Below, piece after piece: positions 48,330 to 54,010 of a DNA stretch of 64,000 bases. Origin of the DNA: a plasmid. Positions within the stretch are counted from its first letter, which is position 1. Each line of letters starts with the position of its first letter. The DNA is taken from NCBI RefSeq assembly GCF_053078305.1, contig NZ_CP166875.1; one strand, given 5' to 3'. Under the pieces are notes generated by a model. It was not told the origin of the DNA, did no database searches, and worked only from the letters and a program-made list of their open reading frames with translations. Made by a program: the position numbers and the translations under genes.

Positions 48330-48720
48330 TGTTTGAGAACCTTCGCCGCAAGGGGCATCACTGCCACGGCCGGAAACGACTGTCCGGGGGCAGACCGCAA
48401 AAGTTTTTGCCTGCTTTTGGGCAAAAAGTTTTGCGGGATGTGCATTTCACCCCTGGACTGGCGGAGACGGTTGTGGCTGTCTTTGCCCCCGGCGACAGGG
48501 GCTTAAACAGGTGTATGGCACCGGACACAACAACGGGCAGGGACCCGCCGCAACGACGAAGAGCGCGTGCGCGAAACGGCGTTGCCCCTTACATCCCGGC
48601 GGCCTTTTGCCGGGATGCCAGGAGCGCAGGCCACGGCGCGACAGAGGCGGCGCGACCGGAACGGTCGCTGCAAGCCCGGGGTTTCGCGTCAGGGATGGAA
48701 GCCCGCCAGGGCGGAGACAG
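48330..48720. promoter_or_regulatory. GC-rich hairpin repeat, copy 1 (candidate Frpo/ssi-type single-strand element)
   Basis: homologous to 53740-54010; core GAGCGCAGGCCACGGCGCGACA.AGGCGGCGCGACCG...CGGTCGCTGCAAGCCCGG. Confidence 0.5.
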
Positions 48721-49078
48721 CTTCGCTGGCTCCGTTCACGACAGCCCGCCCCGCCTGGGGGACGCCCGGAAAAGGCATAAGCAGGAGAACAACAAAACAG
48801 ACAATAATCAGGGCAGCAGTAATCAGAGTCAGAACAGGAGGAAAAAGAGAATAATCAAAGGGAAGGTGATGTGATTTCCGACAGGTCATAAACAGAGAAG
48901 GCGGGGGAAAAGAACGGGCGCCGCAGGCGCGCGTTCATCCCCGTTCCCGGAGGGAATCGGCCTTCCTGGCAGTCTGGTTGTTCATGCTGCTGCAATGTCA
49001 GCAAGGAGAAAGGGGCCACCGGCGAACCAGCAGCCCCTTTATAAAGGCGCTTCAGTGCAGTCAGACCAGCATCAGCCC

Positions 49079-49104
49079 TGAAAAGGCGGGCCTGCGCCCG
49101 CCTC
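49079..49104 (-). terminator. rho-independent terminator of hok transcript
   Basis: GGCGGGCGCAGGCCCGCC hairpin followed by T-tract on - strand. Confidence 0.6.
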
Positions 49105-49111
49105 CAGGTTG

Positions 49112-49270
49112 CTACTTACCGGATTCGTAAGCCATGAAAGCCGCCACCTCCCTGTATCCGTCTCTGTAACGAATCTCGCACAGCGATTTTCGTGTCAGAT
49201 AAGTAAATATCAACAGTGTGAGACACACAATCAACACACACCAGACAAGAGAGCTGCGTGGTAGTTTCAT
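49112..49270 (-). CDS. hok: Hok host-killing type I toxin; overlapping mok frame extends to 49411
   Basis: [52 protein letters not shown]. Confidence 0.85.
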
Positions 49271-49544
49271 GGCCTTCTTCTCCTTGCGCAAAGCGCGGTA
49301 AGAGGCTATCCTGATGTTGTCAGACATATGGGATGCCTCGTGGGTTAATGAAAAATTAACTACGGGGCTATCTTCTTTCTGCCACACAACACGGTAACAA
49401 ACCACCTTCACGTCATGAGGCAGAAAGCCTCAAGCGCCGGGCACATCATAGCCCATATACCTGCACGCTGACCACACTCACTTTTCCTGAAAATAACCCG
49501 CTCATTCAGGCTGTTTACGGGTAATCTGTGTGATTGTTGCCGCA

Positions 49545-50264
49545 TCACGCCGCCTCCCGGAGTTTGTTCGGCACCATCCACCGCTCCATCTCACGGACAG
49601 CGTGACCCGCCTCCCTTGCTGCCATACCTGCCTCTGCGATGACCTGCCAGAATGGCATATCCTGCCACTGCCAGCGTTCCATCCCGGCCAGTGACGGAAA
49701 ACGCTCACCCCACTGCCAGAACAGGGTTTCCAGGTCATGCTCTGCCACCCGGTCACTCCAGCGTGCATACCAGCTTCCGACTGTTTCCGGTGAATGGAAC
49801 GCCAGTTCGATTTCAGCCTGAGCGACCAGCGTCTGGTACGCACGGGCTTTCTGCTCTGCCTCCCGTGCCTGCTGGCGGCTGTACTTCTGCATGACCAGCA
49901 CGGATTTATGGCGACTGCGTTCCCTGACACGGAACCGCACCGACGGGAACAACCGCTCTGCTGCATCACCGGGAAGGGGAAGGAGGCAGACCTCGCCCTG
50001 TGTTTCAATCAGCACATCGACGGCATACAGCCACTGAGAACGGTTGCCGCGCAGTTCTTCTGCGGTCAGGGACGGCATGAAAAATCGCAGGTCAGACAGC
50101 GAAATCCTGCGGCTTCCGTTCAGACAGCGGAAAAACGCCCCCGCATACGGATATTCCGCCAGCGTGTTACCCTGGTGGCGGCGTTTTTCTGTCTCCGCCA
50201 CCGCCCGCCATGCGGCCTGTTGCTCTGTGCTGAGAGGAACCAGTGCCTGTGAACGTGCGCTCAT
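49545..50264 (-). CDS. psiA: PsiA plasmid SOS-inhibition protein
   Basis: 239 aa matching remembered F PsiA. Confidence 0.9.
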
Positions 50265-52708: not shown

Positions 52709-52773
52709 AGTTAGTACCTCCCAAAACGGTAATAATGATTGTCTGCCGGACGCGTTCCCGTCCGGCACCTCTC

Positions 52774-53004
52774 TTACTTAAGAATGCCGAAATCCCTGAT
52801 GACATGGTTCATCCAGTACCCGGCACCGTCCTCAAAATTCCAGGTACGCCAGACCATTGCACCGTTATTACGGACAACCAGGCGAAAATGTTCTCCGTTG
52901 TCATCCTCGATAAAGACGTTCCGGTACTGTGCGGCAACGGCTTCGGCATGTTTTCGGGTAAAAGGACCGTCCGGCAGTCCCTGAAGTATTCTGAAATATT
53001 CGCT
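52774..53004 (-). CDS. hypothetical small leading-region protein
   Basis: 76 aa ORF from MSEYFRIL. Confidence 0.45.
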
Positions 53005-53064
53005 CATCCTCATCTCTCCGGTGATGCCCCGCACAGGACGGGGCGGTTGTCACAGTCAGGCCAG

Positions 53065-53592
53065 TCAGAACGGGATATCGTCTGAAAATCCGTAATCCTC
53101 CCCCTCCGGCGGCTGAGGCTGAGGCTCGGGCTGCGCGGCCTTACGTCCACGGCCTTTCGTTTTCGCGCCACTTTTTTTCGTCGCGTCAGCACTCTGTGGC
53201 TGCCCATTCTGCTGAGGCTGCGGTTGTGCCTGAGCGTTCTGCTGTGGTGCAATCCCCAGCATCTGCATGGTGCCCGTGGTCTTAACAAGAATTTCAGTGA
53301 CGTAACGGGTGATACCGTTATCTTCCCAGCTACGGGTTCGGAGTTGCCCCTCGATATAGACCTGCGCGCCCTTGCGCAGATATTCACCAGCCACTTCCGC
53401 GAGCTTGCCGAACAGCACCACGCGGTGCCATTCCGTCTGCTCCCGCATCTCCCCCGTCTTTTTGTCGCGCCAGCTTTCTGATGTGGCCACCTGCAGGTTT
53501 GCCACTGCGCCCCCGTTGGGGATGTAACGGACCTCCGGATCATTGCCCAGACGCCCGACGAGGATGACCTTGTTGATACCACGTGCACTCAT
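53065..53592 (-). CDS. ssb: plasmid single-stranded DNA-binding protein
   Basis: [25 protein letters not shown]-fold; acidic C-terminal tail DDIPF. Confidence 0.9.
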
Positions 53593-53739
53593 GAGAACCT
53601 CCTGACTGAAAGATGTGAGATAAACCGGATACCGGAGACGGGACGTTCATATGCCCCTTCAGAGGAGCGAAAGCTCCTCCTGCCGTCCACTTCTTCGGGG
53701 TTTCTCCCCGCAGTGGACCTTTCCGATGGGGGCCCGTTT

Positions 53740-54010
53740 ACCGCCTCACGGGACAGCTGTCCGGGGGCGGACGCAAAATTTTTTGCCGGGTTCATGGCTA
53801 AAAATTTTGTGGCCGGTATATCTTCCCCTGGACTGATGGAACGGGAGGTGGTTACGTCTGCCCCCCGGAAAGTCCACAGCGGGAAACAGGCCGCAGAGGT
53901 GGCGGCAGAAGAGGAGCGCAGGCCACGGCGCGACAAAGGCGGCGCGACCGTTCCGGTCGCTGCAAGCCCGGGTTTTCACGCATCGGACCGTAGCGACAGC
54001 CCGAAACCGC
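53740..54010. promoter_or_regulatory. GC-rich hairpin repeat, copy 2, upstream of ssb
   Basis: homologous to 48330-48720. Confidence 0.5.

Follow-up and report, generated by a model that had tools for sequence, protein, structure and literature searches.

Extent and similarity of the two repeats

The leading region of the plasmid contig NZ_CP166875.1 contains two GC-rich repeats, which raises the question whether they are elements that act only as single-stranded DNA, and which of their parts would be responsible. The window, i.e. the whole stretch of DNA that was analyzed, comprised 64,000 nucleotides. An earlier note, made from the sequence alone, had claimed two such repeats, and both are present (copies A and B). 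A 69-nt direct repeat on the + strand was found at 48620-48688 and 53912-53980, with an identity of 91% and a distance of 5292 nt from start to start, and a weaker second block at approximately 48380-48492 and 53755-53865 showed 71-80% identity. The blastn E values of 1e-21 to 1e-157 exclude chance as the origin of the repeat similarity. The extended similarity described for 48330-48720 and 53740-54010 is real but was overstated, as the aligned segments of copies A and B showed a column identity of only 73% with long indels. This is because the two copies, judged by their closest sequence matches, are different alleles, copy A being F ssiD-type and copy B IncI ColIb-type. The extents given before were also too narrow. 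The complete Frpo1/ssiD-type unit of copy A covers approximately 48231-48788 (+, the folding strand) and comprises a leader, the main hairpin, small hairpins and an accessory hairpin block. Copy B, an IncI ssi3-type repeat unit at the 'Frpo2' position, covers approximately 53659-53980 (+) upstream of ssb.

Identity of the repeats

A comparison with published Frpo/ssi sequences (reference sequences from PMC11541004, supplement 4), which the earlier note had proposed as a check, resulted in strong matches for both copies. Copy A showed 95.2% identity to ssiD of F (D90178) across 351/351 nt (window 48243-48591), 95.9% identity to F itself (NC_002483.1) in a match reaching 48231, and 89% identity to the Frpo2 unit of the relative L001 across 48234-48788. 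For copy B (53659-53911), the highest identity was determined for nt 1-253 of ColIb-P9 Frpo3 (96.0%), followed by ColIb-P9 Frpo2 (91.6%) and ColIb-P9 Frpo1 (81.3%). Furthermore, the first 24 nt of the 69-nt block in copy A match the last 24 nt of ColIb-P9 Frpo3. The assignment to the family of ssDNA promoters was thus right, with 95% identity to F ssiD and 96% to ColIb-P9 ssi3. In an Rfam 15 covariance scan of 48000-54400, only sok was significant and nothing overlapped either copy even at E<=1.

The arrangement of the surrounding genes points in the same direction. Downstream of copy B, the - strand carries ssb (53592->53065; NCBIfam PRK13732 SSB, E 3.6e-115), a parB-like gene (52768->50750), psiB (50698->50261) and psiA (50264->49545), the last three assigned from their ORFs and the annotation of relatives. 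They are followed on the same strand by hok/sok (sok at 49268-49439, Rfam sok), and copy A lies downstream of hok/sok at the position of Frpo1. This is the layout of F, namely Frpo2, ssb…psiB-psiA-hok/sok and Frpo1, here with the copies about 5.3 kb apart; Frpo1 and Frpo2 of F are about 5 kb apart with flm in between (PMC9849209). The relative L002, a duplicated mosaic, was left out of this comparison. The claim that both repeats lie upstream of leading genes holds true for copy B, which precedes ssb, but not for copy A, which now precedes an IS66-family element.

Copy A has the same main hairpin as Frpo/ssiD of F (Frpo1, 'ssp1a'; Masai & Arai 1997; Couturier et al. 2023, PMC9849209) and, like F Frpo1, is located downstream of hok/sok (flm) with an accessory hairpin at the same 254-nt offset. 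Copy B resembles ssi3/'Frpo3' of ColIb-P9 (IncI1; Bates et al. 1999; Nasim et al. 2004) as well as Frpo2 of F ('ssp1b') in its position upstream of ssb-…-psiB-psiA, and its allele is likewise found upstream of ssb in the IncI-type plasmid L020. It lacks, however, a 54-nt segment of ColIb-P9 Frpo3 (nt 254-307) that carries two small hairpins. While the Frpo2 locus in F and L001 is ssiD-like and about 89-92% identical to Frpo1, copy B is an IncI-type allele within an IncF backbone. Altogether, we consider it highly probable that copies A and B are the two 'class 1' ssDNA promoters of an IncF-type plasmid, namely Frpo1 (= ssiD of F) and an allele of the IncI1 ssi3 type in the place of Frpo2, respectively, with a hairpin mechanism assigned by homology. 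Both repeats belong to the well-studied Frpo/ssi promoters, which activate those genes that reach the recipient first in conjugation, and no new kind of element occurs here.

Main hairpin

Folding of both strands as ssDNA, as also suggested before, resulted in a stable structure that was stronger on the + strand. For 431-nt regions, the + strand folds reached -125.8 kcal/mol (z -5.4) in copy A and -127.1 kcal/mol (z -7.7) in copy B, compared to -106.6 and -108.3 kcal/mol on the - strand. Each fold contains a long imperfect hairpin on the + strand, located at 48330-48509 in copy A, where it represents the promoter-forming stem-loop of Frpo1, and at 53700-53888 in copy B. Taken alone, the main hairpin of copy A showed -57.6 kcal/mol on the + strand and -43.9 on the - strand, and that of copy B -61.1 and -49.7 kcal/mol, respectively. 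All 28 of 28 homologues were more stable on this strand, by 11.2 kcal/mol on average, and the G·T pairs of the hairpin are confined to this (+ equivalent) strand.

In the alignment of the main hairpin, 98.2% of the cells were paired, compared to 37-60% when the partners were slid, and 69 double-change cells were observed compared to 21 in shuffles, with none of 500 shuffles reaching the observed value. These controls are inflated, because the sequences in the covariation alignments are related and the structure under test came from the alignment itself. Accordingly, the functional core is the imperfect hairpin of about 180 nt and not the small GCGACCG/CGGTCGC hairpin that had been named the core. 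The latter lies 140-250 nt away; the deposited ssiD stops short of it, at 48591, and so do the ColIb ssi repeats. Between the main hairpin and the 69-nt block of copy A, a secondary small hairpin is formed by GCCCCTTACATCCCGGC / GCCGGGATGCCAGGAGC (48584-48625, +).

Candidate promoter boxes and proposed mechanism

UP, -35 and -10 elements have been reported within Frpo hairpins (PMC11541004). In copy A, the 5' arm contains the motif TGTCCGGGG (48381-48389, +), which pairs with CCCCTGGAC(T) at 48450-48459 and recurs in copy B at 53758-53766 (+). The columns of this duplex were invariant in 28/28 homologues and paired in 99.5% of the cells. Its 3' arm contains TGGACT (48454-48459 in copy A and 53829-53834 in copy B, both +), which resembles a -35 box according to our own reading of the motif. 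The apical A/T-rich stem CGCAAAAGTTTTTGCC / GGCAAAAAGTTTTGCG (48395-48436 in copy A, +) is a possible mimic of an UP element. CATCAC in the 5' arm (48356-48361) and CTGTCT in the 3' arm (48477-48482) of the + strand face each other in an internal loop, which has GC clamps on both sides in the fold and is regarded as a candidate for a mispaired -10 region, being spaced from the -35-like TGGACT as expected for a -10 element.

Two geometries were considered for these boxes. With the 3' arm as non-template strand, TGGACT would be followed after 17-18 nt by CTGTCT or TACGTC, whereas with the 5' arm as non-template strand, TTGAGA or TGGACC would be followed after 17-19 nt by CATCAC, TTTACC or TAAACG. 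The first geometry uses the invariant -35 and agrees with the reported UP element, while the -10 hexamers of the second are somewhat better; the candidate -10 hexamers of both are poor and not close to TATAAT. A scan for linear sigma-70 promoters on both strands of the two intergenic regions revealed none.

By analogy to the homologues of F and ColIb-P9, for which the mechanism is established, the following sequence of events is proposed for this plasmid. As soon as the + strand equivalent is single-stranded, about 180 nt would fold into the long imperfect hairpin, the duplex of which would mimic a sigma-70 promoter with its A/T-rich apex, the invariant TGTCCGGGG/CCCTGGAC duplex and the mispaired internal loop. 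The host RNA polymerase would start at the hairpin with the same strand as template and proceed toward lower coordinates. The leading genes downstream (ssb, parB-like, psiB and psiA) would be translated from the resulting transcripts, which could also prime the synthesis of the complementary strand. Conversion to the duplex would then remove the hairpin and switch the promoter off. As regards the homologues, transcription starts have been located by 5' RACE in an IncI1 plasmid (PMC12672017), and Frpo transcripts serve as primers in vivo (bioRxiv 10.64898/2026.01.09.698686).

The earlier note had also considered primosome-type elements. Accordingly, the repeats would be priming sites of the PriA/phiX174 type or the DnaG/G4 type rather than promoters, which would fit the hairpin-rich region and the original isolation of ssiD as a single-strand initiation sequence (Nomura 1991, cited in PMC11541004). 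[quoted passage not shown] The primosome-type assignment is therefore unsupported and is considered very improbable.

Accessory hairpin

The small hairpin that had been described as the core was confirmed in its details. In copy A, it comprises GGC-G-GC-GCGACCG-GAA-CGGTCGC-T-GC-AA-GCC (48646-48676, +) with the majority GAA loop, and in copy B it is located at 53938-53968 (+) with a TTC loop, which is the minority allele. The 17-mers GCGACCGGAACGGTCGC (48652-48668) and GCGACCGTTCCGGTCGC (53944-53960) are exact reverse complements of each other, in agreement with the claim of identical GCGACCG/CGGTCGC stems with GAA in one loop and TTC in the other. The conclusion drawn from it, that a preserved stem with a changed loop indicates selection on the folded form, does not follow, since a perfect palindrome with a reverse-complemented loop is the expected product of one hairpin flip. 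Between the accessory stems of copies A and B, no compensatory change was found. Inversions of hairpin loops at palindromes or quasipalindromes are known as template-switch 'flip' mutations, and the accessory hairpin likewise has a perfect palindromic stem and an exactly reverse-complemented loop of 3 nt. The loops GAA and TTC thus differ by a flip, which probably goes back to a single event of the template-switch type. In PLSDB, the GAA-loop allele was found in at least 5000 records and the TTC-loop allele in 236; since the latter occurs in 236 plasmids, it was inherited in this window and did not newly arise. A second instance of a flip in the family of the accessory hairpin was observed in L012 (GACA compared to GTC).

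The structure of the accessory hairpin nevertheless appears to be conserved, as indicated by the cross-genus comparison only. Across genera, the stem occurs in four compensating forms with 97.2% of the cells paired, and 12 double-change cells were found compared to 3.0 in shuffles (0/500 shuffles reached this value), in an alignment comprising 12 distinct sequences and 3 covarying pairs; chance matches of the pattern scan of the genome collection in the GC-rich L006, L007, L008 and L010 were excluded. The accessory hairpin is offset by 254 nt from the TGTCC motif in F and in the window alike. Two of its stem positions are T·G wobbles, which pair on this strand only. Its fold energy is not exceptional (z -0.9 to -2.2) and symmetric between the strands. 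Altogether, this hairpin is not the promoter itself but a conserved accessory to it, located on the gene-upstream side.

The accessory hairpin could also be a separate functional ssDNA element. It might, for example, block the complementary strand as this approaches from the 3' side or insulate the fold, so that the promoter hairpin would stay single-stranded for longer. The conserved offset, the covariation across genera and the strand-specific wobbles speak for such a role, and for ssp2, a different hairpin of the leading region, complementary-strand synthesis was shown to stall where the stem ends (bioRxiv 10.64898/2026.01.09.698686). On the other hand, the comparison contains just 12 distinct sequences, the fold energy does not exceed that of shuffles, nothing ties the accessory hairpin to stalling, and it could act as RNA instead, in read-through transcripts of the upstream operon. 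A separate function is possible but rather unlikely on this basis. The most far-reaching version of this idea is that of a distinct conserved ssDNA module accompanying class-1 promoters across Enterobacterales, with a four-form compensated stem, recurrent loop flips and a location outside every published Frpo/ssi boundary, which may stall the complementary strand or insulate the promoter fold. We put it forward tentatively and regard it as unlikely; if true, the module would extend the time during which the promoter stays single-stranded and active.

Another explanation would be an intrinsic terminator or a 3'-end stabilizer for the operon upstream of each promoter. In favor of it, the hairpin separates the end of the upstream operon from the next promoter, and its GC-rich stem reaches up to 12 bp, but the T·G wobbles suit the + strand and not the mRNA-sense strand, and this explanation is improbable. 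An intrinsic terminator was rejected, since no T/U run follows the stem on either strand and the hairpin was not called by a terminator scan.

Orientation relative to the tra operon

In F, Frpo1 drives ygeA and ygeB, whereas copy A is directly followed downstream by a truncated, co-oriented IS66-family (ISCro1-like) element (46694-48230, -), and its module appears inverted relative to tra. The IS66-family element comprises tnpA (48001->47324, -; NCBIfam IS66 TnpA, 1.1e-88), tnpB (47324->46977, -; NCBIfam IS66 TnpB, 5.2e-38) and a fragment of tnpC (46957->46694, -). The breakpoint relative to F lies at 48231, and the element starts 15 nt before the position of the ygeA ATG. The junction of IS66 and copy A was found in other plasmids too. 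With its co-oriented position just downstream of Frpo1, here and in these plasmids, the element could couple the expression of the transposase to plasmid entry.

The truncated IS66 element is adjoined by a Tn3-family transposon (42834-46735; NCBIfam Tn3 transposase, 2.6e-181) with a resolvase at 42891-43484 (-) and tnpA at 43629-46667 (+). Its terminal inverted repeats were found, while the flanking 5 bp differ and show no target-site duplication. Three queries spanning the Tn3/ΔIS66/Frpo1 junction matched no record of PLSDB or of the complete E. coli genomes. The Tn3-family element marks a rearrangement junction: the + strand encodes traG and traI and the - strand the leading genes, whereas all of them share one orientation in F. 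The leading-region module thus appears to be inverted relative to the tra operon at the Tn3-family/IS66 junction. No homology to oriT, traM or SLT was detected within the window. As a consequence of the inversion, copies A and B are probably located on the non-transferred strand and would not be exposed on the transferred one, provided that the oriT of this tra operon is the only one. The claim that the repeats fire on entering single-stranded DNA is therefore doubtful for this plasmid.

This raises the possibility that copies A and B are inactive relics, i.e. Frpo homologues by descent that were placed on the non-transferred strand by the Tn3/IS66-linked inversion and are no longer triggered by entry, copy A having lost its target genes. 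The opposite orientations of the tra and leading genes, the unrelated flanks of the Tn3-family element without target duplication and the position of the IS66-family element in front of the former ygeA start are in agreement with this explanation. Contrary to it, both promoter elements are intact over their full length with 95-96% identity and show no decay, which fits a recent rearrangement or a retained use alike; a second oriT or transfer system may be located beyond the window, and the retained strand can be transiently single-stranded in donors. We give the loss of entry-triggered firing an even chance.

Relation to other ssDNA promoters

[quoted passage not shown] A candidate for a class-2 hairpin was observed at 55448-55614 upstream of an antirestriction gene, the arms of which match a published candidate; the fold of this region was no better than that of shuffles.

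The location of the accessory hairpin outside the published boundaries of the elements, together with its covariation across genera, is of modest interest to specialists. A natural plasmid with a leading module that is apparently inverted relative to tra predicts the loss of zygotic induction, and would represent a natural counterpart of the published oriT-inversion experiments. In general, Frpo/ssi promoters are what allows a conjugative plasmid to express its genes for anti-SOS, anti-restriction and other establishment functions prior to conversion of the incoming DNA to the duplex, and they are being actively investigated as a point at which the spread of resistance plasmids is controlled.

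Identity of the repeats and plasmid setting

The repeat noticed earlier from the sequence alone is present in two copies, copy A (48231-48788) and copy B (53659-53980), which share a 69-nt block (48620-48688 versus 53912-53980) with 91% identity and a second block (~48380-48492 versus ~53755-53865) with 71-80% identity. An alignment of the whole segments reached only 73% column identity and comprised long indels. The proposed identity as single-stranded DNA promoters held up in the comparison to the reference ssi/Frpo sequences in supplement 4 of Samuel et al. 2024 (PMC11541004). 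Copy A (48243-48591) showed 95.2% identity to the full 351-nt ssiD deposit of F (Frpo/Frpo1). For copy B (53659-53911), 96.0% identity to nt 1-253 of ColIb-P9 'Frpo3' (ssi3) was determined, compared to 91.6% for Frpo2 and 81.3% for Frpo1. Judged by sequence identity, both repeats are already-known elements, i.e. Frpo1/ssiD and an IncI ssi3-type Frpo2.

The window belongs to a conjugative plasmid of the IncF type. Rfam matches comprised antisense RNAs to traG and traI, CopA and two sok RNAs, and more than 5000 PLSDB plasmids showed matches to the leading region with identities of 80-99%. The tra genes lie on the + strand (for example TraI, 27330-32600). The genes of the leading-region module holding both repeats are all encoded on the - strand, including ssb (53592 to 53065), a parB-like gene (52768 to 50750), psiB (50698 to 50261), psiA (50264 to 49545) and a hok/sok locus between the two Frpo copies (sok 49268-49439). 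The plasmid contains two hok/sok-type loci, the second of which is located near the replicon (36593-36749, + strand). For F, Couturier et al. 2023 (PMC9849209) place Frpo2 ahead of ssb…psiB/psiA, and Frpo1 about 5 kb off, past flm (hok/sok). The order of Frpo2, ssb…psiB/psiA, hok/sok and Frpo1 is the same here, with a spacing of 5292 nt.

Since F and the close relative L001 carry ssiD-like alleles at both loci (the Frpo2 unit of L001 showed 89% identity to window 48234-48788), whereas an IncI-type allele occupies the ssb locus here, the plasmid is, on the evidence of its alleles, a mosaic of an IncI1/ColIb-like ssb-upstream allele (96%) and an IncF-like Frpo1 allele and surrounding backbone. 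This explains why the two copies are only partly alike. The copy B allele, including its TTC loop, also precedes ssb on an IncI-type (MOBP/MPF_I) plasmid (L020). Near-identical enterobacterial Frpo units occurred on contigs with non-enterobacterial labels, namely Streptomyces morookaense (L003, L004), Oscillibacter MAG (L005) and Erysipelotrichaceae MAG (L009), most likely because these assemblies are contaminated or contain wrongly binned plasmid contigs.

Fold and covariation of the main hairpin

Each copy comprises an imperfect hairpin of about 180 nt (48330-48509 and 53700-53888, + strand). Its apical stem is A/T-rich, its TGTCCGGGG/CCCTGGAC duplex is invariant, and it further contains an asymmetric bulge and a GC-clamped internal loop. 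When both strands were folded as ssDNA, as the earlier note had proposed, the + strand was stable with -125.8 kcal/mol (z -5.4) for copy A and -127.1 kcal/mol (z -7.7) for copy B, and the complementary strand was weaker by ~19 kcal/mol in both. The same strand preference was observed for all 28 distinct homologues (mean difference 11.2 kcal/mol), including those from F, ColIb-P9, Klebsiella, Raoultella, Buttiauxella, Entomohabitans, Serratia and an insect-gut contig, and G·T pairs occurred only on the strand equivalent to window +. In the alignment of these 28 related sequences, from which the tested structure was itself derived, 98.2% of the cells were paired compared to 37-60% with slid partners, and 69 double-change cells were counted compared to 21.2 in shuffles (0/500 shuffles as high).

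Promoter function expected from homologues

A scan of both strands revealed no conventional linear sigma-70 promoter in either intergenic region. In the F and IncI1 homologues, host RNA polymerase is recruited by the single-stranded hairpin. By homology, the hairpins here would act in the same way, their transcripts would also prime complementary-strand synthesis, and the promoter would be switched off once the DNA is converted to duplex. For class-1 elements, start sites have been mapped via 5' RACE (PMC12672017), and priming of complementary-strand synthesis by Frpo transcripts has also been described in vivo (bioRxiv 10.64898/2026.01.09.698686). The 3' arm of the invariant duplex contains a TTGACA-like TGGAC(T/A), which is preceded by the A/T-rich apex. 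As a candidate assignment, TGGAC(T/A) as -35 with this apex fits the UP/-35/-10 description of PMC11541004; the mispaired internal loop follows 17-18 nt beyond, and its hexamers are poor candidates for a -10. Possible alternative boxes lie in the 5' arm, with TTGAGA or TGGACC followed after 17-19 nt by CATCAC, TTTACC or TAAACG.

The - (gene-sense) strand also contains a hairpin resembling a terminator (48536-48549), whose tail is T-rich (GGCGGGTCCCTGCC CGTTGTTGTG) and which is located gene-upstream of the Frpo1 main hairpin. Transcription running in from the direction of hok/sok might be ended by it. A further inverted repeat (55448-55478/55584-55614), whose 31-nt arms are 77% complementary, precedes an antirestriction gene (~55374 to 54950). 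It is similar to the candidate Frpo'4 from the literature as well as to class-2 ssDNA promoters and contains GCATTTTACCCTTGCAT in its 3' arm; the 301-nt region around it folded no better than shuffles.

The accessory hairpin

The earlier note had regarded a small hairpin, GCGACCG-loop-CGGTCGC, as the core of the repeat. This hairpin is not the core: located 140-250 nt from the main hairpin on the gene-upstream side, it falls outside both the deposited ssiD, which stops at window 48591, and the ColIb ssi repeats, which reach only 24 nt into the shared 69-nt block (their final 24 nt correspond to its first 24). Its fold energy does not stand out for DNA of this GC content (z -0.9 to -2.2) and is equal on both strands. 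As described, the two copies have the same stems and differ in the loop, GAA versus TTC; the 17-mer at 48652-48668 is the exact reverse complement of that at 53944-53960. Since a reverse-complemented loop on a perfectly palindromic stem requires a single flip event, and no compensatory change separates the window copies, the argument for selection drawn from this pair fails.

Across species, compensation in the accessory stem is real. When one genome per species was scanned with the flanks as anchors, four forms emerged between the conserved flanks: GCGACCG/CGGTCGC, GCAGCCG/CGGCTGC, GCCTCCG/CGGAGGC and GCATCCT/AGGATGC. Among 12 distinct sequences, 97.2% of the cells were paired compared to 17-43% when slid, with 12 double-change cells compared to 3.0 in shuffles (0/500 as high); two T·G wobbles form exclusively on the + strand. 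GAA is the normal loop (at least 5000 PLSDB records), TTC a minority allele (236 records) and TAA a single case (L016, a related database sequence). An Entomohabitans teleogrylli contig (L012, - strand, 3636 and 1365) combines the shared stem GCATCCT/AGGATGC with the loops GACA and GTC; as GAC and GTC are reverse complements, this is an apparent second loop flip in the family. Because the stem compensates across species and both F and the window keep its offset of 254 nt, the hairpin counts as a conserved accessory element of class-1 units.

Insertion downstream of Frpo1 and orientation of the module

Homology to F ends at window 48231, 15 nt ahead of the ygeA ATG position. Directly downstream of Frpo1 and co-oriented with it lies an IS66-family (ISCro1-like) element (46694-48230, - strand), and other E. 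coli plasmids share this junction (48230/48231). Given their position, the transposase genes could be read out from Frpo1 on plasmid entry. The IS66-family element is cut at ~46735 by a 3.9-kb Tn3-family element (42834-46735) with intact terminal repeats; its flanking 5 bp differ and the flanks are unrelated, i.e. there is no target-site duplication. The leading genes of F point the same way as traM, whereas here the leading-region module (48231-64000) is opposite to tra (1-34000). No homology to oriT, traM or SLT was found within the window. If the oriT belonging to this tra operon is used, it is the - strand that would be transferred, which encodes ssb and psiB and has the weaker complementary fold. 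The missing target duplication together with the opposite module suggests that ssb, psiB and both Frpo copies came to lie on the non-transferred strand through a transposon-mediated inversion, whose other junction lies, like oriT, outside the window. Only three points go beyond the cited literature: the covariation of the accessory hairpin, the apparently inverted module and the IS downstream of Frpo1.
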